A stretch of DNA of 64,000 nt from Halapricum desulfuricans. GTDB taxonomy: Archaea; Halobacteriota; Halobacteria; Halobacteriales; Haloarculaceae. Location of the stretch: contig NZ_CP064788.1 in NCBI RefSeq assembly GCF_017094525.1, positions 975,030 through 1,039,029 of the forward strand. The letters are read 5' to 3'. The notes beneath the pieces were generated by a model. It was not told where the DNA came from. It made no database searches and worked only from the letters and a program-made list of their open reading frames with translations. Below, piece by piece: positions 8,077 through 40,327 of the stretch. Within the stretch, counting starts at the first letter, position 1, and every line of letters begins with the position of its first letter. Both the position numbers and the translations under genes were made by a program.

Positions 8077-9180
8077 ATGTACGATCGTCGCACGGTACTC
8101 CGGGCGGCCGGTGCGGGGGCGGCGGCCGCACTGGCGGGCTGTTCAGTGACGGGCGATACGGCCACCGGCGCACGGACAGTGACCGACGGCGCGGGTCGGG
8201 ACGTCGAACTGCCCGAGTCGGTCGAGCGCGTCGTCGCAGTCGGGCCCGGATCCCTGCGGCAGGTGGCGTATCTCGGCGCGACCGATCGGGTCGTCGGCGT
8301 CGAGGCCGACAGGAACGGCTCGACGACGTCGGCACCGTACAACGTGGCCAACCCGGACCTCCGCGAGAAACCCGTTATCGGCTCTGTCGGACCCAACGCG
8401 GGCGGCAACGCCGAAGCGATCATCGCTGCCGATCCGGACGTGATCTTCTTCTACGGCGACACCTCTCGCGCCGAGACGCTGCAATCCCAGACCGGCATCC
8501 CCGTGGTAGCGTTGCGGATTACGGACTTCGGCAACGAGCACCGACGGAAACGCGTCTACGACATGTGGCGACTGGTCGGGACAGTCCTCGGACGCGAGGA
8601 CCGGGCCGAGAAGCTGGCGACGTTTGTCGAGGAGACGGTCGCCGACCTGCGTGATCGGACGGCGGACCTCCCGGACAGCCAGCGAGCGGCGGCATATGCC
8701 GGTGCGATCAGTTACAAGGGGGCACACGGGATCGCGACCACGCGCAGACAGTTCCCGCCGTTCAGGTACGCCGGCGTCGAGAACGTCGCGAACGGGCTCG
8801 AGACCGACGGGCCGTCCGTCGAGGTCAGCGAGGAGGCGCTGCTCGACTGGGACCCGGAGACGATATTCGTCGACGCGGATAACCTCTCGCGCGCTCGCGA
8901 AGATCTGACAGACAACGACGTGTACGACCGGCTCGCGGCCGTCGAGAACGGCGAGGTGTACACGCTCCTTCCCCACGCGAGCTACCACCACAACTACGGA
9001 TCGGTCCTGGCGAACGGCTACTTCGTCGGCACGACGCTGTATCCCGACCGGTTCGGCGACGTCGACTTCCGGACGAGGGTCGATTCGATCTACGAAACGA
9101 TGCTCGGTGCACCGCTATACGACGATCTGATCGACACCTACGGGGCCTATCAGCGCCTCGATGATCTCGATGTCGGGTGA
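8077..9180 (+). CDS. ABC transporter periplasmic substrate-binding lipoprotein (FecB/BtuF, iron-siderophore/cobalamin class)
   Basis: Tat motif RRTVLRAAGAG plus a lipobox Cys. Class III SBP pattern, directly upstream of FecCD permease and ATPase genes. Confidence 0.75.
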   Translation: MYDRRTVLRAAGAGAAAALAGCSVTGDTATGARTVTDGAGRDVELPESVERVVAVGPGSLRQVAYLGATDRVVGVEADRNGSTTSAPYNVANPDLREKPVIGSVGPNAGGNAEAIIAADPDVIFFYGDTSRAETLQSQTGIPVVALRITDFGNEHRRKRVYDMWRLVGTVLGREDRAEKLATFVEETVADLRDRTADLPDSQRAAAYAGAISYKGAHGIATTRRQFPPFRYAGVENVANGLETDGPSVEVSEEALLDWDPETIFVDADNLSRAREDLTDNDVYDRLAAVENGEVYTLLPHASYHHNYGSVLANGYFVGTTLYPDRFGDVDFRTRVDSIYETMLGAPLYDDLIDTYGAYQRLDDLDVG

Positions 9181-10288
9181 GACTGTCCGGGAGAACGACC
9201 CGGGTCAGCACTCCGGGCGTGACGAGACGGCAACATCGCGAGGTAGCGAGACAGTCCGAGAGCACCGCAAACAGACGACGCGACGCACCTACGTCGTCGC
9301 CGCGGGATCGACGCTCGTGCTCGTCGTCGTGTCGCTGCTCGCGATCGCTCTCGGATCTGTACACGTTCCGTTGCCCGACGTCCTCGCCGCGCTCGTCGGC
9401 GGCGGGAGTCAGACCCAGCGCACGATCGTCTGGAACGTTCGCTTGCCCCGGATCCTCGGTGCCGTCGTCGCCGGGGCGGGGCTAGCGGTCGCCGGCGCGG
9501 CGATGCAGACTGTCCTCCGGAATCCGCTCGGCGCGCCGTACACGCTGGGCATCTCGCAGGCGGCAGCGTTCGGCGCGGCCGTCACGGTCGTGTTCGGGTT
9601 TGGCACCGCGGCCTCGGAGTTCGCCTCGCTCGGGCCGTACGTGACGACCGTCGCGGCCTTCCTTGCGGCGATGGCCTCGACTGGACTGATCCTCCTGCTG
9701 GTGATATACCGACAGGCCACTCCGGAGACACTGATTCTCACGGGCGTCGCCGTGGGATCGCTGTTCACTGCCGGGATGACGCTGTTGCAGTACTTCGCCA
9801 GCGACACCGAGGTCGCGGCGATCGTCTACTGGACGTTCGGTGACGTCGGCCGCGCCGGCTGGCCCCACGTCGTCGTCATGGGCGTCGTCGTCGCGGTCGG
9901 ACTGGCGTACTTCCTGGCCAACGCCTGGAACTACGACGTCATGGACTCGGGGACGGCGACCGCGAAGAGCCTCGGCGTCCCCGTCGAGTCTCTGCGGATC
10001 AGGGGGATGGCCGTCGCGTCGTTCGTGACCGCGATCGTCATCTCGTTCGTGGGAATCATCGGCTTCGTCGGACTGGTCGCCCCCCACATCGTCCGGATGC
10101 TCGTCGGCGGGACCGAGCGCCACTTGTTGCCGATCACGGCCGTCGTCGGCGGTGCGCTGCTGGTCGCGGCCGACACGCTCGCGCGGACGGTCCTCGCGCC
10201 GGTCGTCCTGCCGGTCGGGATCCTCACGTCGTTTCTGGGCGCGCCGCTTTTCGTCTATCTCGTGATCAACGGGAGGGAGTACTGGTGA
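9161..10288 (+). CDS. ABC transporter permease, FecCD family
   Basis: Polytopic membrane protein with FecCD/BtuC-like glycine-rich helices. Overlaps the neighbouring genes. Confidence 0.8.
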   Translation: MISMSGETVRENDPGQHSGRDETATSRGSETVREHRKQTTRRTYVVAAGSTLVLVVVSLLAIALGSVHVPLPDVLAALVGGGSQTQRTIVWNVRLPRILGAVVAGAGLAVAGAAMQTVLRNPLGAPYTLGISQAAAFGAAVTVVFGFGTAASEFASLGPYVTTVAAFLAAMASTGLILLLVIYRQATPETLILTGVAVGSLFTAGMTLLQYFASDTEVAAIVYWTFGDVGRAGWPHVVVMGVVVAVGLAYFLANAWNYDVMDSGTATAKSLGVPVESLRIRGMAVASFVTAIVISFVGIIGFVGLVAPHIVRMLVGGTERHLLPITAVVGGALLVAADTLARTVLAPVVLPVGILTSFLGAPLFVYLVINGREYW

Positions 10289-11100
10289 CTCTCGAGATCC
10301 GGGATCTCGCGTTCGCGTACGGCGACGAACCGGTCCTCGACGGCATCGATCTGACCGCCCGTTCGGGGGAGTTGCTCGGGTTACTCGGACCCAACGGCTC
10401 GGGGAAATCGACGCTGTTGCAGACGCTCAACCGGATTCTCGAACCCGATGCGGGGAGCGTCCGGGTCGCGGGCGACCGCGTCTCGGAACTGGATCGCACG
10501 GCGCTCGCCCGCCGGATCGGCTACGTCCCGCAGGACGAACAGGGCGCGTTCCCGGCGACGGTCTTCGAGACGATCCTGCAGGGCCGGCGGCCCCACGGCG
10601 GCTGGTCACCGGGTCCGGACGACCGCGCGGCCGTCGAGGCGACGATCGAGCGACTCGGACTCGCCGAGTTCACGACCCGGAACGTCGCCGACCTCAGCGG
10701 TGGCCAGCGACAGAAGGTCCGGCTCGGGCGCGCGCTCGTCGGCGATCCGCCGGTGTTGCTGCTGGACGAACCGACCAGCGCGCTCGACCTGAAACACCAG
10801 CTCGACGTGATGGAACTGGTGGTCGGACACGTCCGCCAGCGAGGCGTCACCGGCGTCGTCGCCATCCACGATCTGAACCTCGCGGCGCGGTACTGCGACC
10901 GTGTCGCGTTGCTTTCCGACGGCGAAATATACGACGTCGGCGGCCCGAACGTGCTGACTCCGGAGACGATCCGCGATGTCTACGGCGTCGAGGCCACCGT
11001 CAAGGACCACCGCGGTCGGCGGCTGATCGTCACCGAGCGTCCCGTAGACGCGCTGCCCGCTGATGCGCGGACCCCGGTCGCGAGTGCCGACGACGACTGA
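10285..11100 (+). CDS. ABC transporter ATP-binding protein (FecE/BtuD-like)
   Basis: Walker A GPNGSGKST, ABC signature LSGGQRQ, Walker B LLLDEP. Confidence 0.9.
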   Translation: MTLEIRDLAFAYGDEPVLDGIDLTARSGELLGLLGPNGSGKSTLLQTLNRILEPDAGSVRVAGDRVSELDRTALARRIGYVPQDEQGAFPATVFETILQGRRPHGGWSPGPDDRAAVEATIERLGLAEFTTRNVADLSGGQRQKVRLGRALVGDPPVLLLDEPTSALDLKHQLDVMELVVGHVRQRGVTGVVAIHDLNLAARYCDRVALLSDGEIYDVGGPNVLTPETIRDVYGVEATVKDHRGRRLIVTERPVDALPADARTPVASADDD

Positions 11101-11523
11101 TCAACGTGCGACTCGGATCGGAACGGTGCGGAGCGACGATCCGGACGCGATGAACGACCACGATCGCTATCAGGCTGCAAATACGTACTAGCAACTATGA
11201 CACATTTATTATAAATGAATCCAAATCGACTGAGAACGTCTTTTTCCGGACTGTATTCTTTACTGTCGCTTCCGATATGCGGAGAAAATAGCCGATAACA
11301 TCACAGAGGCGAACCACTCTACGGGCGATCATATCTATCCCCAAATAATCGAGATTGTGCGGTTTTGTAGGGTTATATGCCGATATGATCCCGGAACAGT
11401 CTACTACAATCCGTTCAGAGAGCACCACGATACGAGGGGGATCGATCGACGCCATCTCCAAATTCTTACTGTTTACCCCGGACCACCAGTAAACATATGT
11501 ATTAGTAGTCGAATACAGGTTGT
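11101..11523. promoter_or_regulatory. AT-rich (about 45% GC) intergenic tract with TATA-like motifs upstream of the hydrogenase genes
   Basis: Sharp GC drop against the 65% GC surroundings. Multiple TTTATA/TTATAA motifs. Confidence 0.5.
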
Positions 11524-12747
11524 ATGGCGACGGCTCCACAGGGCAGGCGTCCCGTCAAACGGATACAACAGGAAACGAGGTACGACTTCCTTTCGCTGGC
11601 GGTCGATCGGGAGCCGGGAGACGTGGTTTCGGAGTTCTCGGCAGAGATCGACGCGGCGCTGGAGCGTGCCATCGAGGACGACCTCGAGGTCGCGTGGCTT
11701 CAGGGGCAGAGCTGTACCGGTTGTACGATCTCGCTGCTCCAGGGGGAGTATCCGGGAGACACGTTCCAGCTGGAGCGGTTCAGAGAGTCGATCGGGTTCC
11801 ACCCGACGCTGATGACCGACGCCGGGGACAGGGCGCTGGAGTCGATCGAGACCGCTCCGGACGTGCTGGTCATCGAAGGTTCGATCCCGGTCGAGGTCCC
11901 GCGCTCGGCGACGCTCGGGGTCGATCGGTTCGGGAACCGTCGGCCGATCGTCGACTGGGTGATGGAACTCGCGGAGCGTGCCGAGGTGGTCGTTGCCGTC
12001 GGGAGCTGTGCGGCGTACGGCGGGCTTCCGGCTGCCGGCAAGCGCGATCCGGAGGCAGCACGGCCCAGTCCGACCGGTGCGTCGGGCGTCCAGTTCGACG
12101 GTATCGACCCGGGTGGCGTGGTCGGTCCGGCGTTCACCACCGGCGCCGACCTCCCGGTGATCAACGTTCCGGGCTGTCCGGTCCATCCGGACCACATCCT
12201 GCTGACGCTCGCGACCGTTCTCAACGGCCACACGCCAACTCTCGACGAATTCAATCGGCCGCTGCCGCTTTTCACGCCGCTTATTCACGATGATTGCGCC
12301 CGTCGCCCGGACTACGAGGCGAAGAACTTCGCGTCGGAACCCGGCGAGGATGGATGTCTCTACGAGGTCGGCTGTGCCGGCGTCCACGCCCACTGTGACG
12401 ATTCCAAGCGACTCCGGAACGGCGAGACGACGATCTGTCGTGACGTCGGTGCGCCCTGTATCGGCTGTGTCGAGCCGGCGTTCTGGGACCGATTCACGCC
12501 GTTCTATGAGACCCGTGAGACGAGAGAGGAGGTCGACGAGCCCGAGCCGATCGACGAGTCCGAGCCGCTGATCCCGAGACCGGGGAACAGCCTCGCCGGG
12601 TTGTTGATCGCGATCCCGGTCTGTCTCCTGCTGGTGCCGTTGCTGCCGGTCTTCGGGGCGGTGTGGCTGCTCGACCGCTGGGTCGGTCCGGACGGGCCGA
12701 TCGCCTGGCGTGACGATCCACGAAACCGAACGGTCGGTGATCGCTGA
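11524..12747 (+). CDS. [NiFe] hydrogenase small subunit, membrane-anchored (C-terminal TM helix)
   Basis: Proximal cluster motifs LQGQSCTGCTISLL and GSCAAYGG, plus VPGCPVHPD. Distal-cluster Cys run and a C-terminal hydrophobic anchor. Confidence 0.85.
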   Translation: MATAPQGRRPVKRIQQETRYDFLSLAVDREPGDVVSEFSAEIDAALERAIEDDLEVAWLQGQSCTGCTISLLQGEYPGDTFQLERFRESIGFHPTLMTDAGDRALESIETAPDVLVIEGSIPVEVPRSATLGVDRFGNRRPIVDWVMELAERAEVVVAVGSCAAYGGLPAAGKRDPEAARPSPTGASGVQFDGIDPGGVVGPAFTTGADLPVINVPGCPVHPDHILLTLATVLNGHTPTLDEFNRPLPLFTPLIHDDCARRPDYEAKNFASEPGEDGCLYEVGCAGVHAHCDDSKRLRNGETTICRDVGAPCIGCVEPAFWDRFTPFYETRETREEVDEPEPIDESEPLIPRPGNSLAGLLIAIPVCLLLVPLLPVFGAVWLLDRWVGPDGPIAWRDDPRNRTVGDR

Positions 12748-14276
12748 TGCCGGAGATCGAGATCAACCCGACCACGCGGATCGAAGGCCACCACAGCACG
12801 ACGATCGACGTGCAGGACGGACAGATCGCGTCGGCCAAAAGCCACATGGAGATGTTCCGGGGCATCGAGAACATCACCGTCGGACGACCGCCCTCTGACG
12901 TCCCGCAGATCACGCAGATGGTCTGTGGGGTCTGTTTCACCTCCCACCGGAAGGCCGCGACGCTCGCGCTCGAGGACGCGGCCGCCCGCGCGGGCGTCTT
13001 CAGCGGCGTCCCGTACAACGCGCGAGTCCTTCAGAACGTCATGGAGGGGATGTTCCTGCTCTGGAACCACGCGATCCACCTGTTCACGCTGGCCGGGCCC
13101 GACTACAGCGACGCCGTCGCGGACACTGGCTACGAGCGACTCGATCCCAACGGCGGGGCCGGCTACGAGAGCGCGCTGTCCAACCAGCGGACGCTGCTAC
13201 AGGCGTTCACAGAGTTCGGCGGCCGGGCGCCGCACCCCCTGACGTACGCGCCGGGTGGCGTCGTCGCCCAACCGGACGCGGAGACGATGGAACGGGTCCG
13301 CGAGCGCGTCGAATCGGTCGACGAGTGGATCGGCCCGACCGACGCAGTCCCGGAAGTGCTGGAGGCGGTCCGCGACCGGCGGGGGCCGCCGAGCGGCGCG
13401 AGTGGACTGTACGACGTGCTGAGCGTGATCGTCGCTGCCGCCAGGGAAGACGCCGACGAGTTCGGGGTCGGGCCCGGGCGCTTCTACGCCAACGGGATGT
13501 TTTACGACGAAGGGGGCGGTCTCGTGTTCCCGGGCGGCGTCGTCTCGGACGGGTCGCTGCGTGATCCGAGTCGGACGGAGCTGCTCACGAGCATCACCGA
13601 AGACACGAGCCACGCATGGTACACCGAGTCGTCCGGAGGCCATCCACAGCGCGCCCCGCCCCCGGAGCCGGCACCGGACAAGGAGGGGGCGTACTCCTGG
13701 GGGAAAGCGCCGCGGTTCGACGGCAGGGCGGTCGAGACGGGACCGCTCGCGAGGCTGATCGCCGCCGACGAGGACCCGTTCGCCCTCCGGTCGCGACTCG
13801 GCGACGATCCCCGGCAGAGCAGCACGCTGAATCGTCTGATCGCCCGGGTACAGGAGTTCTTGCTCGTCAGGGACATGCTCGGGGAGTGGCTCGACGCGGT
13901 GGACGTCGACGGACCGCTACGGGCCGAGTGGACCGACGACTTCACGGGCGAAGGAGCGGGACTCTGGGGCGCTTCGCGCGGTGCTCTCTCCCACTGGGTT
14001 CGGGTCGAGGACGGTGAGATCGCCAACTACCAGATCATCTCGCCGACGCTGTGGAACCTCGGCCCCCGGGACGAAGCTGGCAACCCGAGCATCCTCGAGT
14101 ACGCACTGGAGGGGATGGCCGTCGAGGATCCCCGCGATCCGGTGAACGTGATGCGGACGATCCGGTCGTTCGATCCCTGTCTCGGCTGTGCCGTCCACGT
14201 TCAGGCCGGCGGCGGCGAACGGTTCGTTGGCGATCTGGAGCCACCACGTCCGGGAACCGGTGCGATCGACGGGTAG
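12747..14276 (+). CDS. [NiFe] hydrogenase large subunit
   Basis: N-terminal RIEGH and RxCGxC (QMVCGVCFTSH). C-terminal DPCLGCAVH Ni-binding motif. Confidence 0.9.
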   Translation: MPEIEINPTTRIEGHHSTTIDVQDGQIASAKSHMEMFRGIENITVGRPPSDVPQITQMVCGVCFTSHRKAATLALEDAAARAGVFSGVPYNARVLQNVMEGMFLLWNHAIHLFTLAGPDYSDAVADTGYERLDPNGGAGYESALSNQRTLLQAFTEFGGRAPHPLTYAPGGVVAQPDAETMERVRERVESVDEWIGPTDAVPEVLEAVRDRRGPPSGASGLYDVLSVIVAAAREDADEFGVGPGRFYANGMFYDEGGGLVFPGGVVSDGSLRDPSRTELLTSITEDTSHAWYTESSGGHPQRAPPPEPAPDKEGAYSWGKAPRFDGRAVETGPLARLIAADEDPFALRSRLGDDPRQSSTLNRLIARVQEFLLVRDMLGEWLDAVDVDGPLRAEWTDDFTGEGAGLWGASRGALSHWVRVEDGEIANYQIISPTLWNLGPRDEAGNPSILEYALEGMAVEDPRDPVNVMRTIRSFDPCLGCAVHVQAGGGERFVGDLEPPRPGTGAIDG

Positions 14277-14297: not shown

Positions 14298-15581
14298 TCA
14301 CACGTCACGGTCCGAGAGCGCCAGCACCGCCCCTGCCAGTACGTCAACGGCGATTTCGATCGACGCCTCGTCGACGTCGAAGGTACTCGTGTGATGGCCG
14401 CCCGGGTGATCGGTTCCGACGCCGACGTAGGTGGCATCGCCGCCGCTGTCCTGAACATGCCGCATCAGGTAGGTCGCGTCCTCGCTCCCGCCGAGTTCGT
14501 CGCGCTCGGTGACCGCGGTCACTCCCGGGCTCTCGCGCGCGACCTCGGCCACGACCGCGACCAGTTCGTCGTCGCTCTCGGCGCTCGGGGCCTGCCCGCG
14601 CGTCTCGACGGCCACGTCGCACTCGTGCATCTCCGCCGCGCTCGCCAGCACGCGCTCGGCGCGCTCGTAAGTGTAGTCGGCGAGTGCCGTCGTCTCGCCC
14701 CGGACCTCGCCCTCGACGAACGACTCGTCGGGGACGATGTTCGTCGCGGTGCCGCCGCCGACGATACCGGCGTTGACCCGGGTCGCCCCGTCGGTGTGTC
14801 GCGGGATGGCATACAGGTTCTGTACAGCGGTCGCGAGTGCCTGTACCGCGTTCGCCCCCTGCTCGGGGTGGGCTCCCGCGTGAGACGATTCTCCGGTGAA
14901 TTCCGCGAGGAACTGCCGGACGGCGAGGAAGCCGTCGATTCCGGCGACCACCTCGCCGGTCGGGTGGTCCAGTCCGACGTGGACTGCGAGCAGATACTCG
15001 ACGTCGTCGAGGTGACCCGACTCGGCCATCGGCTTCCCGCCGGCGATACGTTCTTCCCCCGGCTGGAAGAACACCTTTAGCGTCCCGGCGAAGTCCGACG
15101 CGAGCACCGCGTCGATCACGCCCACCCCGAACGTTGCGTGGGCGTCGTGACCACAGGCGTGCATGTAGCCGTCGTGTTTCGAACGGAACCCCTCGGCTGC
15201 GGGGTAGTGGTGTTCCGCGTCCGACTCCGTGATCGGGAGCGCGTCGATGTCGACCCGGAGTCCGACGGTCGGCCCCTCACCGCGTTCGATCACGGCGATC
15301 GCGCCGGTGTACCCGCCTTCCATCGGCTCCAGCAGCTCGGGATCCACACCGGCCGAGAGCGCCCGGTCGTACCACTCGGCGATCCCCTCCTCGTCGGGAA
15401 CGTTCATCCGGGCAGCCTCCTCGAGCACCGCCGGCCCGTAGTGGATCTCGTCGACGTCGCGTGCTCGCAACGCCTCGACGATCCGGGCAGTGGTGTAGAA
15501 CTCCCGCCAGGCGGGCTCTGGGTGTTGGTGGAGATCGCGTCTGAGGGCGATCAGGCCCTCGACCGTGTGTGTAGATACCAT
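14298..15581 (-). CDS. M20 family amidohydrolase / peptidase (M20D aminoacylase-hippuricase-like)
   Basis: Metal-binding motifs HACGHDAHA and GEE...GG. About 427 aa from MVSTHT. Confidence 0.75.
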   Translation of the reverse strand: MVSTHTVEGLIALRRDLHQHPEPAWREFYTTARIVEALRARDVDEIHYGPAVLEEAARMNVPDEEGIAEWYDRALSAGVDPELLEPMEGGYTGAIAVIERGEGPTVGLRVDIDALPITESDAEHHYPAAEGFRSKHDGYMHACGHDAHATFGVGVIDAVLASDFAGTLKVFFQPGEERIAGGKPMAESGHLDDVEYLLAVHVGLDHPTGEVVAGIDGFLAVRQFLAEFTGESSHAGAHPEQGANAVQALATAVQNLYAIPRHTDGATRVNAGIVGGGTATNIVPDESFVEGEVRGETTALADYTYERAERVLASAAEMHECDVAVETRGQAPSAESDDELVAVVAEVARESPGVTAVTERDELGGSEDATYLMRHVQDSGGDATYVGVGTDHPGGHHTSTFDVDEASIEIAVDVLAGAVLALSDRDV

Positions 15582-15649
15582 GTCGGTGCCACGGGATCGG
15601 TCGGCATAAACACCTGTGACGAGCAGCGACACGCCGAGGCGTTGCGATC

Positions 15650-16145
15650 CGACAGACCGGTGCGGTCGCTCGCGGGTTCGAGCGGCTGCGGGGAGTAAGC
15701 CCCCTTCTGTTCGGCCCGGCATTCGGCTGAGCGTCCGCGCCGCGTCCGGGCTACCTTGTGGCGCGGACTTGCACCGGTGAGGATTCGCCGTTCCATCCGT
15801 TCTCTGCTGTCGGCCTTCGGCGGGTCAACTTCCCGTTCCTTTCTCGGCAGGATACTCTGCCGGGCTTTCGTCCGACAGTCGACCCGACCTTCGTCAGTCA
15901 GGGTTCGCACGCTTCATCAGTCGAGCAGAGCGGTCTCGTTTCTGTTCCAGAGCCAGCGGTCTCCCGCTCCGGGTTTGCACCCGGTCACCTGCCCGGACGG
16001 TGGGGGGACTTTCCTCATGCCCCTTGCACGTGTTCCGGCGAGGCCTGAACAGTGATCCGGGGCACGGGGTCCGGGCTCCCGCTGCCATCTGACGTAGTCG
16101 GTCGTCCGGATTAACACTGTCGGCTGCCGTCGAGCGGTCGCGTGT
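15650..16145 (-). ncRNA. rnpB: RNase P RNA candidate
   Basis: No ORF over 430+ nt. The minus-strand transcript carries CR-I-like GAGGAAAGUCCCCCC and CR-V-like ACAGAAGGGGGCUUAC, with complementary C5/G5 for P4. An internal GGAACAGAAACGAG resembles CR-II/III. Many GC-rich hairpins. The ends are approximate. Confidence 0.6.
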
Positions 16146-23350: not shown

Positions 23351-24592
23351 TCAATTGAGTGCGCTGACGGCCACATTCACGACTCGGTTGTCGGGATCGA
23401 TACGGCGGTTTCGCAGGATCTCGTCCGTCCGTTCGTCCTCGAGTTCGGCACAGATTTCGGCGACCGCGAGTCGGATATCAGGATCGTCGGCATCGGCGTG
23501 TCGCCTAAGGAAGTCAAAAACTCGATCCGGAATCCGATCGGACGGCAACTCCGAGCCGATCGAACGGACGGTCTCGGCATCGACATCGTCTGTGTCCACG
23601 TTCGCGAGTGTCGCCTCGACACCTGTCGATTCGGTCTCCGTGTTGGTTCCGTTGTCGGTCACTTCACTATCGGAGGCATCGCCTGTCTCCTGGGCTATCG
23701 GTTCGACCTCGCTTGTCGGACCAGCAGCCCCACTCTCGGCAGAAACAGACGCGTCAGTCTGCTTCGAACTGGATGGAGCCTCAGGCGCCGGGTTCTCTAT
23801 CGAGCCGTCGGTAGTCACCGAATCGGACGGCGAGTGACTGCTCGACGAAGTCTCGGTGCCGCTATCGCCACCAGAGGCACTGTGCTCAGGTCGGATATGG
23901 TCGTCTGAGGCCGTCGAGAGGACAGTGTGTCGTCCCTTCCAGCCGGCACCAAGGATCGATCCGAGGAATGCGAACTCGCCGAGCGAGATGAGAAACAGGA
24001 GCGGCCGATCGAGCCCCGGCGAAGGAGTGACGACGCCAAGCGGGGCAAGGTCGATCAGCGAGAGGATGCGCCCGAAGAGGAAAAGAAAAGTGAGGCCGAA
24101 GGCGATCATCCAGGTGACTTTTCGCTGCGCGCGAGCGATCACCGCGACAACGGCGATCGGTGCTGTCGCGAAGAGAGTTATACGGATAATATCTCCCATC
24201 GACAAATAGATGGTCGCGCTGGTGAGGACGGTCAGCGAAAGGATCGTCGCCACGAAAACGTAGCCAGCGTAGGCCGCGTACAGCGTCCCGAACCGGTCGA
24301 ACTGGGCCTGAGCGTCGGCATCCGGGAGTTGCGTAGCCGTCTCTGAAGGTAACGAGTCAATAGAGTCGGACCCGGGCTCTGGCGAGGACTCCTGCGTGTT
24401 CGAACCCGTCTCGCTGGCGTTCTTGGCGACGTCACTTGCAGTGCTCGTGGCGCTGGCTGCAGCACTCGCGGCTGTCCGCGATCCGCCGATCAGTTTCAGG
24501 ATCGCGGTCTTGATCGTCCGGAACGCGGACAGCACGACGAACAGAGGTGCCAGGGCGCTCTTGATCGGCGCCATGATGAGCCGTCGGAGCAT
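23351..24592 (-). CDS. membrane protein with C-terminal HEAT-like repeats, last gene of the accessory cluster
   Basis: Four TM helices, a Ser/Thr-rich linker and C-terminal ...IRLAVAEICAELEDERTDEIL...NVAVSAL HEAT-like units. Confidence 0.5.
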   Translation of the reverse strand: MLRRLIMAPIKSALAPLFVVLSAFRTIKTAILKLIGGSRTAASAAASATSTASDVAKNASETGSNTQESSPEPGSDSIDSLPSETATQLPDADAQAQFDRFGTLYAAYAGYVFVATILSLTVLTSATIYLSMGDIIRITLFATAPIAVVAVIARAQRKVTWMIAFGLTFLFLFGRILSLIDLAPLGVVTPSPGLDRPLLFLISLGEFAFLGSILGAGWKGRHTVLSTASDDHIRPEHSASGGDSGTETSSSSHSPSDSVTTDGSIENPAPEAPSSSKQTDASVSAESGAAGPTSEVEPIAQETGDASDSEVTDNGTNTETESTGVEATLANVDTDDVDAETVRSIGSELPSDRIPDRVFDFLRRHADADDPDIRLAVAEICAELEDERTDEILRNRRIDPDNRVVNVAVSALN

Positions 24593-24594
24593 GC

Positions 24595-25380
24595 TCAGAC
24601 CACCGCCGGGTACTGGGACTGGTCGACGCCGAGTGTCTCTAGCAAGTCCTGTGCGGGTGGTACGTCATCGGCCGAGGTCGCGGTCGCGACCCGGTCGAGC
24701 GCACCCTCGAGTTCTTCGAGTCGGTCAGTGACTTCCTCGAGATTCAATATCCGCGGCGACAGTGAGAGGTACGTCGATCCTTCGACCTCAATGAGGTCGT
24801 CCATGTCCATCGTCGGCATCCCCTCGTCCGGCAGTTCCAGCCGTCCGAAGCCGGTGACAGTAACGGGAGACGCCAGTTCGATCTCACCTTCGACGACGGC
24901 CTGTGGCAAGACGGTTGACACGTCGTTCAGTTTTGTCTGGCCGTAGGATTTGAACGTGTAGACGAGACTGTTCTGGGCAACCAGTTTCCGCTCTGCGCTG
25001 ACAATACCAATGACGGCGCAATTCTCAAGGATCACGTCGGTACCGACGACGTTGCCGTAGACGATTGCGTCCGTGAGGCGGATTCGGGTTCCCGTCACCG
25101 TTCCGTAGACAGTCGCACCCGACCCAGCGACCTTGCCGTCGGCTCCGACTTCACCTTCGACGCTTCCGTCCTCGAACTCGACACTTTCGGCCCCCATGAC
25201 CGAGCCTTCGACGGTGCCGCCCTTGATTTCGACCGTCTCGCCGTAGACGCTGCCCTGAACTGTCGCTCCCTCGTAGATACGGACTGGCCGTCCGATCTCG
25301 GCTTTGACTGTGGGGACGATCTTGCCGTCATAAGTTTCGCCCTCCTCGACGATGGCTCGAGTCTTTTCGATCGACGCCAT
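24595..25380 (-). CDS. bactofilin-domain (beta-helical polymer-forming) protein
   Basis: Tandem G-x-V-x-G-x-V beta-helix repeats (VQGSVYGETVEIKGGTVEGSVMGAESVEFEDGSVEGEV...) typical of bactofilin/DUF583. Confidence 0.65.
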   Translation of the reverse strand: MASIEKTRAIVEEGETYDGKIVPTVKAEIGRPVRIYEGATVQGSVYGETVEIKGGTVEGSVMGAESVEFEDGSVEGEVGADGKVAGSGATVYGTVTGTRIRLTDAIVYGNVVGTDVILENCAVIGIVSAERKLVAQNSLVYTFKSYGQTKLNDVSTVLPQAVVEGEIELASPVTVTGFGRLELPDEGMPTMDMDDLIEVEGSTYLSLSPRILNLEEVTDRLEELEGALDRVATATSADDVPPAQDLLETLGVDQSQYPAVV

Positions 25381-26307
25381 TCAAGATCCCCCCTCCGTAG
25401 CGACAGTTACCTGATCGTCCACTGCGTCCGCGACCACCGCTTCGTAGGACAGGAGCGGTCGACTGTCGTCGATGTGTGACTCCAGCCCATCGAGGATCTC
25501 CGACCCTTCGATCGTATCCGAACGAGCAGGGGTGAGAGACGTCCGCCCGACGAGTCGTTCCATTCCGGGGAAGGTATCGAGCGACACGTCGACAGGACCG
25601 TCCCTTGACGTAGCCTGGGACGGGGCGACGACGTGCTGTTCGGTCTGGCCGTCCCGTTCGACGGTCACGACGTAGTAGGGGACCTGAACCGTCGTCGGCT
25701 CGGGCTGTGGGGGATCAAACGAGGTCCGCGTCCGCTGGATCCGTTCGACGAGTTCGTGCTGCTGGTCGACGAACTCGTGGATCTCGGAGACGACCTCGCC
25801 GGTCGTGGATTCGATCCGGTCGTGGCGCCGCTGTTCGACCGCTTGGTTTTGGGACTGGAGGGTCTGCCAGGTCGTCGTGACGTGTTCGACGAAGGGTTGC
25901 TCGATTCCTTCCTCGAACTCCTCTTCGTCGATCTCGAAGATGTGAGCACCAAGATCTCGAATCCGTTTCGCGGCCTTCTCGTCGAGTTCCTCGTGTTTTC
26001 GCTCGTATCGCTCCGCGATCCGATCGAGTTGGCGTTCGAGTTCCTCGTGTTCTGTCTCGATACGCTCCTGTTCGGCCGTGATCTGTGGACGGATCTCTCT
26101 GACCTCCGCGACCCGCTCCATCATCTTCATCTCGGCCTGGGCCTGGATCGATTCATAAATCGCATCGATGAGCTCTTCGAAGCCCTCTTTCGCGACTGTG
26201 TGGACCTTTTTGACTTCTTGCCGGACTTCCTTGACAGACTTGAGAATATCACCGACCGTCTGGTGAATCCGCTTGAGGATCGGATGTAGGTCGTCGTTCC
26301 CAGCCAT
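25381..26307 (-). CDS. coiled-coil hypothetical protein
   Basis: Heptad-rich, charged; lower GC than the core genome. Confidence 0.5.
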   Translation of the reverse strand: MAGNDDLHPILKRIHQTVGDILKSVKEVRQEVKKVHTVAKEGFEELIDAIYESIQAQAEMKMMERVAEVREIRPQITAEQERIETEHEELERQLDRIAERYERKHEELDEKAAKRIRDLGAHIFEIDEEEFEEGIEQPFVEHVTTTWQTLQSQNQAVEQRRHDRIESTTGEVVSEIHEFVDQQHELVERIQRTRTSFDPPQPEPTTVQVPYYVVTVERDGQTEQHVVAPSQATSRDGPVDVSLDTFPGMERLVGRTSLTPARSDTIEGSEILDGLESHIDDSRPLLSYEAVVADAVDDQVTVATEGGS

Positions 26308-26310
26308 GGG

Positions 26311-27891
26311 TTAGGCCCCCCTCCGGTCGGGATGATTCGCACTGTTCTGGTTGATCGTGTGCGCGAGCCGTGCCGCGTTTTTGTCCTCCTCGGCCTGTTT
26401 TTTCCTCGCACGCTCGTCCTCTGCTGCCTGCTGGGCGGCGAGGAACTCACGCTGACGCTGGCGTTCGTCCTCGCGTAACATCTCAGCCCGTTGTTCGGCC
26501 TCGGACTCGGCCTGTTCGATACGGTCGTTGACGACCCCTTCGGTTTCTTCGAGGACGCGTTCGGTCTCCTCGTCGATCGTCTCGAATGCCTGGGAGACGT
26601 CTTGCCGGAACTGGTTTATCTTCTGTTCTTGCAGGCGATCGTACTCATCCATCAGGTCGCCGAGGACGTCGACCATCCCCTGTTTGGCCCGTGCCTCCGT
26701 CTGGAGATCCCGGATCTTCGAGCGGATGTCCTTGATGCGTTCTTCCACGGTCCGGATCTCCTCGCGTTGCTGTTCGTACTCGCGTTCTTGCAGTTCGGCT
26801 TTCTGGTCCTCGATAGACTCGTAGATCTCTCGACGCTGGTCGTCCTTCTCGATCCAGAGCTGTTCCCACACGTCAAGGACGATCTCGTCACGGATGCGAT
26901 GTCGAGGGATCCCCGCTGCCGGGTCAAACGACGACCGGCAGGTGTCACAGTACCACTCACCGTCGTCGCGAACTTCGAGTTGTGACTCGATGTCGTCTGT
27001 CATGCAGTCCGGGCAGTAGAAGTGATACGAGACGAGTCCGAACATGTCGCTGGCCCGTCGAATGTGATCGTTGAGCAAGTCCGTCGCCAACTCTTGGAGT
27101 CCGGAGAGGTCGTTGGCGATACGGCGGCTCTGTTCACTCACGTCGAGCAGGACAGATTCTCCATGGTCCTCGTCGGCCATCGACTCGAACTCGTCGAACG
27201 TCCGGACCTGTTCTGTCGCTTCCTCCTGCGACAGCGATACGCCCCCAGCGTCGACAGTGTCGTTCTCGGCCGACGGGACCAACCGAGACAGCGAATCGAT
27301 AGCTGGGTCCCCCTCATCAAGGACCGGGGCGGAAATCTCGTGGGTCTGACTGTCGTTGATCTCCGATCTAATGGTCGAAATGGTCTGGACGAACTCCTTT
27401 TCAACGTCGGTTTCGTCGGTCATCACGACAGGGTACTCACTCATCGAGTCCAGCGTCTGTTTGACCTGCTGTGCGTGTTCCGGGCTATCGAGAAGGCGCA
27501 ACTGAAACTGTTTTGACTCGATCGATTCCGTCGCGTCGAAGACCACCGTCCCGTCGTCGTCGGGGACGAGATGACCCGTCCAGTAGCCCTTCTCGATCGA
27601 CGTGACAGTCGGCTCTGGACTCCGGGAACGAACGTAGGCGCCGCCGCCGACACCGCCAACGATACCGACCCCAGCAAGCGCCAGTCCCGGTCCGGATTGG
27701 TTGGACGCCACCAGGGCGATCCCCGCGATCATCACAACGACGGCCGACACGACGACGAGTTTTAGTCGGGACCACTGCTGCTCGTAGTGATCTTCGAGGT
27801 CGTCGCTGACGGCCTCGTGAACCGCGATCGATTGGGCGTGTCGTTCGTCGACACCGTTCGAATTGACGTACACCACAGAGGGTATGCGCAT
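26311..27891 (-). CDS. membrane-anchored coiled-coil protein with a central zinc ribbon (CPDC...CDTC)
   Basis: TM helix near the N-terminus, a Cys4 ribbon (YHFYCPDC...WYCDTC) and a long E/R/Q-rich coiled coil. Confidence 0.5.
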   Translation of the reverse strand: MRIPSVVYVNSNGVDERHAQSIAVHEAVSDDLEDHYEQQWSRLKLVVVSAVVVMIAGIALVASNQSGPGLALAGVGIVGGVGGGAYVRSRSPEPTVTSIEKGYWTGHLVPDDDGTVVFDATESIESKQFQLRLLDSPEHAQQVKQTLDSMSEYPVVMTDETDVEKEFVQTISTIRSEINDSQTHEISAPVLDEGDPAIDSLSRLVPSAENDTVDAGGVSLSQEEATEQVRTFDEFESMADEDHGESVLLDVSEQSRRIANDLSGLQELATDLLNDHIRRASDMFGLVSYHFYCPDCMTDDIESQLEVRDDGEWYCDTCRSSFDPAAGIPRHRIRDEIVLDVWEQLWIEKDDQRREIYESIEDQKAELQEREYEQQREEIRTVEERIKDIRSKIRDLQTEARAKQGMVDVLGDLMDEYDRLQEQKINQFRQDVSQAFETIDEETERVLEETEGVVNDRIEQAESEAEQRAEMLREDERQRQREFLAAQQAAEDERARKKQAEEDKNAARLAHTINQNSANHPDRRGA

Positions 27892-27982
27892 ATGTAGCAC
27901 ATATCTCGTAGAAGGCATGATACATAGTTCCTACGCCTGGTAACCGCTCCGTCGGGTGGCGTCACGAGACTCGACTCCGCGA

Positions 27983-29260
27983 TCACGAACCGAATAGCTC
28001 GCGTAGCTGCCTGAACAGAGAACCAGCCACGTCCGAGAGGCTGCGTTCGATCTCAGTCGCTTCCGTCGTCTCGCCCGACGAGCGAGTCGCCTCGGAACGA
28101 CGGAGGCTATCCGTTTCAATACCGACACGTTCCCGGTCGAGAGTCCCGGACGCCTCGCCGGCGATACCGGGAGCGTCCGTCCGTCTCTGCCAGGGGAACG
28201 TCCGCATCTCCGTCGACTGGGACTGGTCCCGGATTGTATCGAGGACGCTGCTGTCTTCCGCACGAGCGGCGAAGGAACTCCCCTCGGCGAAATCGCTTCG
28301 AGCGCGATGACGGCTCGTCGATCCGCCGACATCGGTCGAATAAGTACCACCGGAACAGCACAGAAGCGACACCGACTCGTCGAGGACAACCGCACGGAAC
28401 AGCGCAGTCAGATCACGTCGGAAATCGAGCATCGATTCGTATCGCTCGTCCCGTTTTTTCGCAAGGGCCGTTCCGAGGACCCCATCGACCGCTGCTGGAA
28501 GGTCGGGATCGACCTGTGTCGGCGGGTCAGGTGCATCAGTGAGATGGTGGTTCATCACCGCTTTGGCGGTGCCTGTAAACGGTGGATGCCCGGTCAGGAG
28601 CTCGTACACTACTGTCCCGAGCTGGTAGATGTCAGTTCGATCGTCCGGCGGCCCGAGCGTCTCGGGATCGAACTGTTCCGGTGCCGAGTACCGCGGTGAG
28701 AGTCCGTTCACCTCCTGTGAGTGGTGCAACAACAGTTTGGACAGTCCCCAGTCGCTCACCTTCGGAACGTCCCAGGTTCGGTCGTCGGTCGTCCGAAACA
28801 GCACGTTCTCGGGTTTCAGATCGAGATGTGCGACACCGTAGCGGTGGGCGTCCCGGACAGCGTTCGCGACCCAGGCACCGATCCACAGCGCTTCACCAAA
28901 GTCAATCTCACCGGTTCGGTCGGCAAGCGAGCCTCCGTCCATGTACTCCAGGGCGATCCAGGGAACCGGTGTCGAACCCCAGTCGACGATACCGACGATC
29001 CCGTCGTGGCTGTCGATCTGCTCCCACGTTTCTGCCTCCGAGACGACCCGCTGGGCGAGTTCCCGGTCCAGCGTCCCCTGCAGGCGCGGTTGCTTAACTG
29101 CCAGCACGGTGCCGTCCGGAGCACGCATCTTCGTTACGTCGGCTGTTCCTCCGATACCGATCTGCGCCTGCTCTTCCAGCGTCGAGAGATCAACATCGAT
29201 CGCTGGCGCCGCGGGCACGTGCTCTGGGATCGCCGTGTGATCAGTCGGCGATAGATTCAT
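27983..29260 (-). CDS. Hanks-type serine/threonine protein kinase
   Basis: VAIK-like AVK, HLDLKPENVL catalytic loop, SDWGLSK (DFG-equivalent) and APE motifs. Ser/Thr-rich C-terminal tail. Confidence 0.85.
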   Translation of the reverse strand: MNLSPTDHTAIPEHVPAAPAIDVDLSTLEEQAQIGIGGTADVTKMRAPDGTVLAVKQPRLQGTLDRELAQRVVSEAETWEQIDSHDGIVGIVDWGSTPVPWIALEYMDGGSLADRTGEIDFGEALWIGAWVANAVRDAHRYGVAHLDLKPENVLFRTTDDRTWDVPKVSDWGLSKLLLHHSQEVNGLSPRYSAPEQFDPETLGPPDDRTDIYQLGTVVYELLTGHPPFTGTAKAVMNHHLTDAPDPPTQVDPDLPAAVDGVLGTALAKKRDERYESMLDFRRDLTALFRAVVLDESVSLLCCSGGTYSTDVGGSTSRHRARSDFAEGSSFAARAEDSSVLDTIRDQSQSTEMRTFPWQRRTDAPGIAGEASGTLDRERVGIETDSLRRSEATRSSGETTEATEIERSLSDVAGSLFRQLRELFGS

Positions 29261-29469
29261 TGGACCCGACTAGCCGTATCCCGGTTCGGATGGGGTTCCC
29301 GAATCCGAAGCGGATATCTGGTCGCCCCCCTCTTGACGAGCGGGCGTCGGAGGGGGACGCTGTCGAATCCATCGGACGCGGTGTTCGGACGCACAGTTGT
29401 ATGCCAGTCTGGCACGATAAATAGTGTTTCGCTCGTTTCATAAAGTACTGGCCACCGGATAGGAGCCAG

Positions 29470-30240
29470 TCACACATCAGTGAGGTCCTCGCCGCACTCG
29501 GGACAGACCTGCGCTTTCGCGGGGATGGACTCGCCACAGAACAGACAGTACTTGCGAGTTCGTTTGTCTGCCGAACGTTCGGCCTCGCACTTCGGACAGA
29601 CCGGACCGGTATAGGTGATCCCATGAGTCTGACAGCTGTTTTGCGTGTCCGTTTCGCTGACTGTCTCCGGCGCGTCACCGGACGTGGCGCTCTGTGAGTT
29701 ACCACCGACGTTCGACCTGTTGACGACACTATCGTCGACGGTCACGTCGCCACCCCGCGAATCTTCCCCCGCCTGTCCGGGGCCGATGTCCGATCGGTTG
29801 ACGACGCTGTCGTTGACGGTCGTGCTGTTGTCGACCTTATCGCCGGCGACGTAATCGCCGCCGCTGACTTCGATCCGGGCGTCGCGCTCGACGGTCAGGC
29901 GGAGTTGGGTCTGGTAGCCGAGTTCGATCACCGCGTCTCGACGCACGCGCTCGCTGAATCCCTCTTCGATGTCGTGGGAGTCCCCTTCGGTCCGGACGAC
30001 GACGCCGTTAGAGTTTCCCCGGTTACGGACTTCGATCGACTCCGGCTGTGGGACGAACACGACAGGCGGATCGTCGCCTTTCTTCTTGGAGACGGTCACG
30101 TCCGCGATCCCGAGCGGTGCGACGCCGGTTTCGGTCTCGACGACGACTTCTTGATCCCGGGCGGGATCGCGGTAGACCTCCGTGCGTGACTCGATCGGGA
30201 CGGCCCCATTGTCGGTCCTCTCGGGCGAGAGATAGCCCTT
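29470..30240 (-). CDS. double zinc-ribbon protein with internal tandem repeats
   Basis: C-terminal CPKCEAE...CLFCGESIPAKAQVCPECGEDL. Tandem DSVVNRS(D/N)(I/V)G repeats, also visible at the nucleotide level. Start at MKGYLSP. Confidence 0.55.
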   Translation of the reverse strand, partial: KGYLSPERTDNGAVPIESRTEVYRDPARDQEVVVETETGVAPLGIADVTVSKKKGDDPPVVFVPQPESIEVRNRGNSNGVVVRTEGDSHDIEEGFSERVRRDAVIELGYQTQLRLTVERDARIEVSGGDYVAGDKVDNSTTVNDSVVNRSDIGPGQAGEDSRGGDVTVDDSVVNRSNVGGNSQSATSGDAPETVSETDTQNSCQTHGITYTGPVCPKCEAERSADKRTRKYCLFCGESIPAKAQVCPECGEDLTDV

Positions 30241-30346
30241 CATGCCTCTCTGCAAGCGTATTATATCTGGGAACCCATGAAAATGTGGGAATATGTCTGA
30301 TGCATATACATAGACCCAGACAAGCGTTTGGCCGCGACTTCGGGCG

Positions 30347-31117
30347 TCACTCCCGCATGTACGCCTGCTCGACCCGACTTGCGATCCGCTCGACACGCCT
30401 GATCCGATCCTCGGCCAACTCCCCATCCGTACCCAGCGCCTCGAAGGCCTCGATCAATCCCTCGACATCTTCCCGGACGTCCTCGTAGGCGCTATCGTCG
30501 ACGGGATGTTCGGCCATGAACTCCCGAACTTCCTCGGCGCGTTGGAGACACGCTGTCGCGGAGTCGTGGGCAGCTGCTTCCAGATGCTCCGCAAGCGACT
30601 GCCCGAGATAATCGACCGCCTCTTCACCGCCCTCGTCTTCCTCGTCGCTACCTTCATCTCGTTCCATCCGGGTGATATCCGACAGTCGCCGCCGGGCACG
30701 CCTGCGCTCGTCTTCGTAGGTCGCGTTGCCGGCGATCTCCGCCAGCGCCTTCCCCACTTCGCCCCGGAGCGTCTCACCCAGACCGGCATAGATCTCCCGG
30801 AGCGCGTCGATAGCGTCTAGCCGGTCGTCCGAAAACTTCGAATCATCAGCGAGTTCGGTTAGCGTCTCGACGACGACCTCTTCAATCGGGTCTGACTCGC
30901 TTTCGAAACAGGCCAGCAACTCCTCGCGGGCCAACTCGCGCTCGTCGCGGTGAGTCGACTCCAGTGTGATTTCCCGGAACGCCTCAGCGATAGTCCGCTT
31001 GTCCTCCACGGGCGCGTCCGGATACAGCTCGGCCAGCGACTCGATGGCCTCCTCGCGATCCCGCGAATAGGGCGAATCCAGCGCAGTCTCGCGATGCGTG
31101 TCGATGCTGTGCTGCAT
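30347..31117 (-). CDS. acidic alpha-helical repeat (HEAT-like) protein
   Basis: Repeated ...A.ESL.EL.......A..L.E... units. Start at MQHSIDTH (ATG 31115-31117). Confidence 0.45.
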   Translation of the reverse strand: MQHSIDTHRETALDSPYSRDREEAIESLAELYPDAPVEDKRTIAEAFREITLESTHRDERELAREELLACFESESDPIEEVVVETLTELADDSKFSDDRLDAIDALREIYAGLGETLRGEVGKALAEIAGNATYEDERRRARRRLSDITRMERDEGSDEEDEGGEEAVDYLGQSLAEHLEAAAHDSATACLQRAEEVREFMAEHPVDDSAYEDVREDVEGLIEAFEALGTDGELAEDRIRRVERIASRVEQAYMRE

Positions 31118-31118
31118 C

Positions 31119-32882: not shown

Positions 32883-32952
32883 AGTTGCCCCCCATGCAGC
32901 GAGTCAAGACGGTTTGGGTCAGTCGATACGCGCGTAGTGGTCTGCTCGTGTG

Positions 32953-33717
32953 TCATCGTGGATTATCTCCCTGATCGAGGCGCTGCTGTCGGCGTTCGAG
33001 GGCGGTTTCGAGGTCGCGGAGCCGGCGGTGAACCGTCTCGAAGTGTTCTCCGGCGGGGTTAGGAAGAGACTGCTCTAGGGCGTCAAGTTCCTCGTGGAGC
33101 CGGTCGATAGCCGCCACGAGATCCGTATGAATAGAGACAACGGCCGAACGATCGCGAAGAGATACGGCATCAGTAGATATGCCGTCCTGTGGACTCGTTA
33201 TTCGCTGTTCGGCCTGCCGGACGGTTTCGGCCAGCGAGCCGACTCGGGCGGCAGCGTCCCGGTCACCACTCTCGACGAGTCGATCGTGAACGTCGTCAAG
33301 GACTGACCTGGCCGCCGCGAGCTCGGTAGCCAGGTGCGATCGAACCTCGGCGTCGACGCTGGCGATCGAATCGGGCGACGAGTACGGCTCCGAGACGACG
33401 TCCCTGAGCGGTTCCGGAACGTCAACCGCGTCGGGCTGAGGGGGTGTCGACAGATCAGCCGCTGCTGGCGCAGACGCGGCTTCGGAGCTGTGGCGGGCAA
33501 AATGATACGCGATCCCCCAGAGAAACGCCAAAGCGGTGGATATCAGCAACATGCCGGTCACGGACTCGGGCAGCGAGAGGCCGACAGTCGAGAGCACTGA
33601 ATCACCGATCGACCGACTGATCCCCGTCACAAGGGACGTATGAGCACTGATGTATGCGCCGAGGACGATACTTCCGAAAGAAGCGATCGCGTGTGAAGCG
33701 CCTGTCTTGGCCGGCAT
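32953..33717 (-). CDS. membrane protein, possible SPFH partner
   Basis: Three N-terminal TM helices and a helical C-terminal domain. Confidence 0.4.
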   Translation of the reverse strand: MPAKTGASHAIASFGSIVLGAYISAHTSLVTGISRSIGDSVLSTVGLSLPESVTGMLLISTALAFLWGIAYHFARHSSEAASAPAAADLSTPPQPDAVDVPEPLRDVVSEPYSSPDSIASVDAEVRSHLATELAAARSVLDDVHDRLVESGDRDAAARVGSLAETVRQAEQRITSPQDGISTDAVSLRDRSAVVSIHTDLVAAIDRLHEELDALEQSLPNPAGEHFETVHRRLRDLETALERRQQRLDQGDNPR

Positions 33718-33720
33718 ACG

Positions 33721-34929: not shown

Positions 34930-34966
34930 CGCGGGTCCTCCGATCGTTGCGCCGCCCGAATCATGG

Positions 34967-40240: not shown

Positions 40241-40247
40241 TCGTACG

Positions 40248-40327
40248 TCTGTTTCGTATCGATCGCAGGCGGTCGGAGCGGTACGACAACCCGTGTGATG
40301 CTGTCGGTTACCGGTCTGTGACAGCAT
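40248..40327. repeat. intergenic hairpin repeat element, copy d (degenerate) plus an adjacent 8-bp stem hairpin
   Basis: GTCTGTTTCGTATCGATCGCAGGCGGTCGGAGCGGTACGAC, then gatgctgtc-ggttaccggtctgt-gacagcatt. Confidence 0.5.

Follow-up and report, generated by a model that had tools for sequence, protein, structure and literature searches.

Probable accessory [NiFe] hydrogenase encoded by a two-gene locus of Halapricum desulfuricans and matured in trans

A gene pair for the small subunit (SSU) and large subunit (LSU) of a [NiFe] hydrogenase was analysed in 64 kb of Halapricum desulfuricans DNA from NZ_CP064788.1 (this whole stretch is called the window, and positions refer to it unless another locus is named). 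The two genes probably form a functional operon for a second, accessory [NiFe] hydrogenase of H. desulfuricans, which belongs to a clade named type B here and is matured in trans. A total of 20 related loci were compared for gene order and LSU identity, and the labels type A and type B were coined for the two groups that emerged. The features of the pair are given below, with hydropathy expressed as the Kyte-Doolittle mean over 19 residues (KD19) and lengths in amino acids (aa).

11524-12747, plus strand: SSU of a type B [NiFe] hydrogenase, 407 aa, with Pfam families PF01058 (Oxidored_q6) and PF14720 (NiFe_hyd_SSU_C)
11575-11628, plus strand: relic of a decayed twin-arginine (Tat) signal, TRYDFLSLAVDREPGDVV, SSU aa 18-35, aligned with (S/T)RRNFL(K/R)L and the hydrophobic region (h-region) of cytochrome-b-linked relatives
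12592-12672, plus strand: C-terminal hydrophobic helix of the SSU, LAGLLIAIPVCLLLVPLLPVFGAVWLL, aa 357-383, KD19 2.64
12747-14276, plus strand: [NiFe] hydrogenase LSU, 509 aa, with Pfam family PF00374 (NiFeSe_Hases; E 1e-81)
14199-14273, plus strand: 25-aa C-terminal extension of the LSU after DPCLGCAVH, with RFVGDLEPPRP conserved in orphan pairs and in relatives with an adjacent HycI

The two open reading frames (ORFs) lie on the same strand, overlap in ATGA and were both intact, and the LSU was exactly identical to QSG08457.1/WP_229111668.1 of H. desulfuricans (P0361). With the Pfam families matched and the Ni-Fe and Fe-S ligands complete, the hydrogenase pair claimed in a preliminary description of this DNA was borne out. 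The top NCBIfam matches were group 1-type models, all far under their curated cut-offs; NiFeSe models scored highest, also far below the cut-offs (176 relative to 470, and 345 relative to 600). Compared with the structure 5JSU, the ligands and catalytic residues of the LSU were RIEGH, C60/C63/H67, R473 and C478/C481/H484 (DPCLGCAVH), and all of these were invariant in 117 full-length homologues. The precise alignment that the preliminary description had proposed as a check therefore revealed no mutated ligand, and the DPCxxCxxH motif that it had reported was present. Its other LSU motif, RxCGxC, had been misread, as the sequence is QMVCGVC with Met replacing Arg; Met before CGxC is the norm in the clade (81 of 117 homologues). 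Ser66 of the LSU (12942-12944) occupies a position at which 101 of 117 clade members carry a Cys beside the conserved His (CGVCFxCH); Ser was found in the sublineage of the window (P0001-P0004 and P0006) and Thr in P0005. The C-terminal extension of the LSU is presumed to be the substrate of a maturation endopeptidase.

For the SSU, alignment to solved structures placed the ligands of the proximal cluster at C64, C67, C162 and C218 and those of the distal cluster at H255, C258, C278 and C284. The medial cluster ligands are C291, C305, C312 and C315, including an extra Cys at the position equivalent to Pro238, where 3Fe-4S enzymes have Pro. All proximal, medial and distal ligands expected from the earlier description were thus present. 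Because the medial cluster has four Cys, the pattern of the [NiFeSe] hydrogenase Hys, it is predicted to be a 4Fe-4S cluster, and the SSU is hence predicted to hold three 4Fe-4S clusters.

The pair is under purifying selection. The corresponding locus of a sister strain (L001; CP064789.1) was 99.16% identical to the window across 21.5 kb, and each subunit differed by one amino acid between the two strains (A379T in the SSU); of 13 nucleotide differences in the two genes, 11 were synonymous and 2 nonsynonymous. Relative to the other orphan pair, the ratio of nonsynonymous to synonymous substitution rates (dN/dS) was 0.117 for the LSU and 0.149 for the SSU. These values, between two lineages that both lack an adjacent endopeptidase gene hycI, indicate that selection has acted on the pair since HycI was lost.

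The assignment to type B followed from gene order and LSU identity. The 8 of 20 loci without a cytochrome b gene between the LSU and HycI genes were the same 8 in which the LSU was 65-76% identical to the window LSU, and no PF01292-type cytochrome b was found in any of these type B loci. In the 12 loci with cytochrome b, the LSU was 55-59% identical to that of the window, with the exception of L023 (65%). The window pair is accordingly of type B, its LSU being 65-76% identical to type B LSUs and 55-59% identical to type A LSUs. In type A SSUs an uncharged h-region comes after (S/T)RRNFL(K/R)L, and the LSU gene is succeeded, in this order, by those for cytochrome b, HycI and a 67-aa ORF, in most cases with hypCDEABF next; every SSU examined from the cytochrome b loci had the canonical TRRNFLKL signal. 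Type B loci have no cytochrome b, and their HycI is fused to a Zn-ribbon domain and followed by hypCDEABF; the SSU has xPDFLxL at the Tat position, then a segment with 2-4 charged residues, and in most members a long acidic linker as well as a hydrophobic helix at the C-terminus. In the LSU tree type B was monophyletic, and L023, a locus with both Tat signal and cytochrome b, was basal to it. The type A module is the one described by Sorokin et al. (PMC6176080), and HydDB places haloarchaeal HydABC, which are type A relatives, in group 1a (PMC6176080).

One locus, L003 of Halorhabdus, fitted neither type (Tat signal and HycI present, no cytochrome b). In its SSU (L003 9047-9994, Halorhabdus sp. 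SVX81) homology ends after the NRP motif and an Arg/Ser-rich sequence replaces the C-terminal Fe-S domain, which resembles a frameshift or pseudogene, yet LSU and HycI follow. The maturation proteases of type B (L004 11518-12147, L008 2546-3193) have a C-terminal Zn-ribbon-like domain (WYCxDC...GHxVxGxxRPERLL), and in type A clusters the same domain forms the separate 67-aa ORF between HycI and hypC (L002 13095-13298). No description of the Tat-less, cytochrome-b-less type B clade was found in the papers retrieved; the genes of the pair were already annotated in GenBank and the type A family has been published, and a preprint mentions undescribed group 1 clades including Halobacteriota. The preliminary description had regarded hydrogenases as confined to a few lineages of otherwise aerobic heterotrophs. 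Neither statement could be upheld: there were 1618 matches in hypersaline genomes and metagenomes, with many genera among the matches listed, and H. desulfuricans is a described sulfur-respiring species with relatives that use H2 (PMC5437934, PMC6176080). These relatives respire sulfur anaerobically, and several of them can grow with H2 (PMC5437934, PMC6176080).

At the position homologous to the Tat motif the window SSU reads TRYDFLSLAVDREPGD, and a twin-arginine signal is missing: RR has become RY, and the former h-region contains four charged residues and has a mean Kyte-Doolittle hydropathy of 0.41, compared to about 1.3 in cytochrome-b-linked relatives. No uncharged h-region was found in the first 60 aa of the SSU, where KD19 reached a maximum of 0.38. 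The sequence GRRPVKR, put forward earlier as a possible Tat signal, was not supported as such, as it lies upstream of the homologous TRYDFLSL position and has no hydrophobic stretch after it. The relic at the homologous position is conserved, with a dN/dS of 0.18 for this segment alone. Among 10 type B SSUs aligned, 9 lack the homologous twin arginine and one, from Haloarcula halophila (L004), keeps RR before PDFL; the nearest non-haloarchaeal SSU relatives keep their Tat signals. At the other end of the protein, the transmembrane (TM) anchor noticed earlier was confirmed as the hydrophobic helix listed above. It is presumed to be a tail anchor, is kept in most type B SSUs, and was the sole high-confidence helix in a single-sequence AlphaFold model of the SSU (predicted local distance difference test score, pLDDT, 80-91). 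A type-B-like SSU, P0395, has neither the Tat motif nor the TM helix.

Most simply, these features would mean that type B has ceased to be exported and functions on the cytoplasmic side. Its ancestors would then be group 1 uptake hydrogenases exported by Tat and linked to cytochrome b; in type B the twin-arginine signal decayed to a conserved N-terminal relic and the cytochrome b gene was lost. Because the Tat signal has decayed and cytochrome b is gone, the enzyme would most likely be assembled and kept in the cytoplasm, with the tail helix holding it on the cytoplasmic face of the membrane. The most likely electron partner would be a soluble carrier or, by direct exchange, the menaquinone pool, and the enzyme may serve H2 uptake, or H2 evolution and cycling. 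In other genera the type B genes have their own endopeptidase gene and hypCDEABF directly downstream; here the structural genes and a promoter of about 82 bp would be what is left, and maturation would be carried out in trans by native Hyp proteins and the type A endopeptidase. A broader proposal is offered more tentatively, namely that type B as a whole is an exported respiratory enzyme turned inward, with a Tat relic under purifying selection, cytochrome b lost and a new tail anchor in most members, and that just the two structural genes are mobile and are matured by resident machinery, including a non-cognate endopeptidase.

It is unlikely that the enzyme is instead still exported, whether through a cryptic signal of the Tat type or through hitch-hiking, and is anchored by the SSU helix on the outer face, with the cytochrome b of the resident cluster connecting it to the quinone pool. 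The type A cluster on the same chromosome should indeed include such a cytochrome b, the closest solved relatives of the LSU are periplasmic group 1a/1b enzymes, and a C-terminal TM helix is also found in exported group 1 SSUs, but the variant P0395 has no TM helix at all. The RR pair at aa 8-9 and the RR kept by Haloarcula halophila could be taken as signs of a cryptic signal; however, no uncharged hydrophobic stretch follows either aa 8-9 or the homologous motif in the window SSU, the twin arginine is lost from nearly all type B SSUs aligned, and across loci the loss of the signal coincided with the loss of cytochrome b, L003 being the exception.

No maturation genes adjoin the pair because its accessory genes lie elsewhere on the chromosome, which is the ordinary answer for a hydrogenase without neighbouring maturation genes. 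Searches by tblastn with haloarchaeal HycI and HypA-F found nothing in the 64 kb, in agreement with the preliminary description, and hydC, hydD and hypA-F, which adjoin hydAB in the compact module of Sorokin et al. 2018, were missing from the window. The related statement that the window contains no cytochrome b was correct for the hydrogenase type (PF01292), of which tblastn found none, but a bc-type pair with halocyanin is present at 40.4-44.0 kb. This bc-type cytochrome b lies 28 kb from the hydrogenase genes, does not belong to the hydrogenase-type family and is unrelated. The surrounding cluster (39401-44373) encodes DUF7319, halocyanin, DUF7318, a Tat-signal protein without Pfam match, cytochrome b N- and C-terminal domains and DUF7315, and resembles a haloarchaeal bc-like complex.

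As for hyp genes in the rest of the genome, where it had been suggested to look, HypD (QSG08898.1) and HypF (QSG09079.1) are on record for the strain. In the sister strain hypC-D-E-A-B were found at one locus (L010) and hypF alone at another (L011), about 560 kb and 205 kb from the pair, so that all six Hyp genes are present in that strain. A genome devoid of hyp genes, in which the pair would have had to be regarded as a remnant according to the preliminary description, is thus not what was found. Within CP064789.1, hypCDEAB (L010 9674-14800) ends at a tyrosine integrase and DUF5805, and hypF (L011 10001-12328) lies about 355 kb away, before two Pilin_N genes, purF, L37e and LSM. In H. hydrolyticum the six hyp genes are contiguous (hypCDEABF, L012 9716-15877) and are followed by the same neighbours as in L011 (two Pilin_N, purF, L37e, LSM). 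Since the genes are contiguous there and share these downstream neighbours, the hyp operon was split by rearrangement, and the order of the accessions points to an inversion that distinguishes the two H. desulfuricans strains. The hyp genes are native to the genus, because the H. desulfuricans Hyp proteins are 86-95% identical to their H. hydrolyticum counterparts, and the native structural genes are those of type A.

Such a type A hydrogenase is encoded by the same strain (SSU QSG08410.1/WP_229111600.1, LSU QSG08411.1), and its SSU carries the canonical Tat signal QTRRNFLKLAGTMSAGAVV. The type A pair is 46 accession numbers from the window LSU, corresponding to a distance of about 40 kb, which would put it outside the window by some 30 kb on its left side. 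In congeners (H. hydrolyticum and a Halapricum metagenome-assembled genome; loci L020 and L021), the type A cluster consists of SSU, LSU, cytochrome b, HycI and a 67-aa Zn-ribbon ORF, and by this gene order the endopeptidase acting on the window pair is probably that of the resident type A cluster. A genome scan for the endopeptidase returned 63 loci without H. desulfuricans, but Haloarcula halophila and Halodesulfurarchaeum formicicum, which had contributed sequences to the query, were missing as well, and the scan therefore says nothing on absence; the protease cluster of H. hydrolyticum lists no H. desulfuricans member. The convergent peptidase gene noted earlier directly after the pair is an M20 amidohydrolase (14298-15722) that begins 21 nt past the LSU stop. 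It was rejected as a stand-in maturation protease, being a member of an aminoacylase-type family and missing from the orthologous context L005. A Salinibaculum contig of 3,942,322 bp (P0033, P0392, P0175, P0351) seemingly carries a type-B-like and a type-A-like LSU on the same chromosome; the matches listed for it include a single HypD and a single HypF.

The bare SSU-LSU arrangement is shared with the closest relative of the window LSU, a metagenomic protein (P0002) with 89% aa identity by BLASTP. Its locus, L005, is a bare pair in an unrelated gene neighbourhood with its own long AT-rich upstream tract of unrelated sequence, and DNA homology with the window is limited to the stretch between 82 bp upstream of the SSU start and 25 nt short of the LSU stop. 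In the next relative (75%), HycI is retained and hyp genes are missing. Together the relatives form a reduction series from full clusters (L004, L014-19, L032) through SSU-LSU-HycI (L008, L009) to SSU-LSU (the window and L005). Such a series, the lack of HycI, hyp and cytochrome b genes next to the pair or in the window, and the lack of a verified endopeptidase in the genome could mean that the pair is a non-functional remnant that can no longer be matured after deletion of its protease and hyp genes. This is doubtful, and more so than continued export, given that both ORFs are intact with every ligand in place, that dN/dS between the orphan lineages is low (0.12-0.15), that promoter and C-terminal LSU extension have both been conserved, that two strains are near-identical with mostly synonymous differences, and that HypD and HypF are encoded in the genome. 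A role as a cytoplasmic H2 sensor, a regulatory hydrogenase controlling the resident uptake enzyme, is very improbable: the missing Tat signal, the missing redox partner and the coexistence with a conventional uptake hydrogenase would suit it, but regulatory hydrogenases have no cleavable C-terminal extension such as the one retained by this LSU, a membrane helix is part of the SSU, neither a histidine kinase nor a response regulator is encoded next to the pair, and type B is encoded with a complete maturation operon at many other loci.

Upstream of the pair, the region reported earlier as an AT-rich tract of about 420 bp and 45% GC was recovered as 423 bp (11101-11523) with 46.8% GC; its core (11181-11523) had 43.4% GC and was the longest and most AT-rich island of the 64 kb. 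Two parts were distinguished.

11101-11441, no strand assigned: AT-rich non-coding spacer, about 41-47% GC, without recognisable element
11442-11523, plus strand: conserved promoter-proximal segment that accompanies the two genes; from 11442 onwards the DNA is homologous to L005, L006 and L007

The spacer was 98.8% identical in the sister strain. No Rfam family, no Pfam match on its ORFs and no repeats were found in the AT-rich tract, and beyond the conserved 82 bp it had no similarity to the other compared loci, including the tract upstream of the 89% orthologue; on these negatives an insertion sequence remnant, a non-coding RNA and a decayed gene were rejected. Haloarchaeal hydrogenase operons commonly have AT-rich sequence in the 100-200 bp directly upstream, and tracts of about 400 bp were found at the two orphan pairs and two type A loci (L022, L024). 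Alignment of relatives revealed an invariant 24-nt box, CCAGTAAACATATGTATTAGTAGT, at 11486-11509 (-38 to -15 from the ATG), which is a candidate TATA/BRE or regulator site. A sigma-70 and terminator scan, irrelevant for an archaeon, gave nothing above chance.

The coding regions of the pair have 66-69% GC, relative to 68-69% for the flanking genes, and show no compositional anomaly. Composition thus says nothing on origin, since coding GC is the same as in the flanks, and of the earlier suggestion of acquisition from a compositional boundary, horizontal acquisition remained plausible while the boundary itself was no evidence for it. The pair was probably acquired horizontally, or is at least strain-variable, because its clade differs from that of the resident enzyme, the context of its orthologue is unrelated, and only two of the four H. 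desulfuricans chromosomes seen in protein clusters contribute to its 90% LSU cluster (the type A LSU was seen in 4 of 4). A plasmid collection gave no match. Directly upstream (8077-11100) lies an ABC transporter (Peripla_BP_2/FecCD/ATPase) with 44-55% identity to the one located after the hyp genes in Halodesulfurarchaeum clusters (L002, L026); a link between metal-uptake ABC transporters and haloarchaeal hydrogenase modules has been reported, and the resemblance may be a coincidence. Elsewhere in the window, an IS200-like transposase (844-1257) and a DDE transposase (54891-56063) are encoded, and two regions (24500-36000 and 50000-57000) of lower GC (55-62%) with Zn-ribbon proteins, an AAA ATPase and proteins without Pfam match may be integrated elements.

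A number of points weigh against a functional accessory enzyme matured in trans. The cytoplasmic orientation is deduced from sequence, and no electron-transfer partner is encoded with the pair. The endopeptidase of this genome is presumed from congeners, and cross-processing by the type A protease is an assumption, [NiFe] endopeptidases being usually isoenzyme-specific. The single-sequence AlphaFold model of the SSU was poor (mean pLDDT 38.7) and usable for the C-terminal helix only. The absence from two strains was read from 90% protein clusters, not from genomes, and this clustering splits some proteins that are 95-98% identical; the two strains may also have lost the pair, instead of the others having gained it.

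With the missing maturation genes accounted for, the interest of the locus lies in the clade, which occurs across many genomes and metagenomes of hypersaline origin and appears to represent a cytoplasm-facing, cytochrome-b-less derivative of a respiratory uptake hydrogenase. H. desulfuricans reportedly ferments sugars, forming H2. If the proposed reading is true, type B could evolve H2 in fermentative sulfur-respiring haloarchaea, or cycle it with the outward-facing type A, and models of H2 metabolism in anaerobic haloarchaea would shift towards production or cycling, not uptake alone. The pair also offers a natural experiment on how tightly an endopeptidase is bound to its own LSU and on what a decayed Tat signal peptide does, and H. 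desulfuricans strains apparently with and without the pair are already in culture.

Of the described systems, haloarchaeal HydABC (Halodesulfurarchaeum formicicum HTSR_0657-0658; Natrarchaeobaculum sulfurireducens AArc1) is the nearest family, with an LSU 55-59% identical to that of the window. Shared features are (Q/G)(M/K)VCGVCF, the SSU insertion GxQF...GGxxGPxF, an LSU C-terminal extension of about 25 aa and a similar FecCD-type ABC transporter nearby. HydABC differs in having a canonical Tat signal, the cytochrome b HydC, and HydD and hypA-F directly downstream (PMC6176080), all of which the window pair is without. The C-terminal tail of the window SSU also differs from that of the HydABC SSU. 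The best solved match of the LSU was the [NiFeSe] hydrogenase Hys of Desulfovibrio vulgaris (PDB 5JSU/3ZE6), the SSU of which shares the four medial-cluster Cys; the window LSU has Cys at the fourth ligand (DPCLGC) and not the selenocysteine of Hys, and Hys is periplasmic and Tat-exported, unlike the proposed state of the window pair.

The Mycobacterium smegmatis hydrogenase Huc lacks both a Tat signal and cytochrome b, associates with the membrane and donates electrons to menaquinone. It may therefore serve as a precedent and working model, by analogy, for a Tat-less, cytochrome-b-less enzyme that reaches menaquinone. Huc (group 2a; PDB 7UTD/7UUR/8DQV) was the best solved match of the SSU (E 4e-45) and has the same insertion, whereas the window LSU was closer to group 1a/1b structures (E 3e-66) than to Huc (E 2e-50), these being match scores and not a phylogeny. 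Unlike the window pair, Huc has a separate scaffold, HucM, no SSU tail helix and a medial-cluster region without the extra Cys. In Escherichia coli, each hydrogenase isoenzyme has a dedicated endopeptidase in its own operon, and the window pair differs in having none of its own. The structural operons of E. coli Hyd-1, Hyd-2 and Hyd-3 are matured by hyp genes encoded elsewhere, as would be the case here, and H. desulfuricans combines two isoenzymes with one HypD and one HypF, as in the Salinibaculum chromosome.

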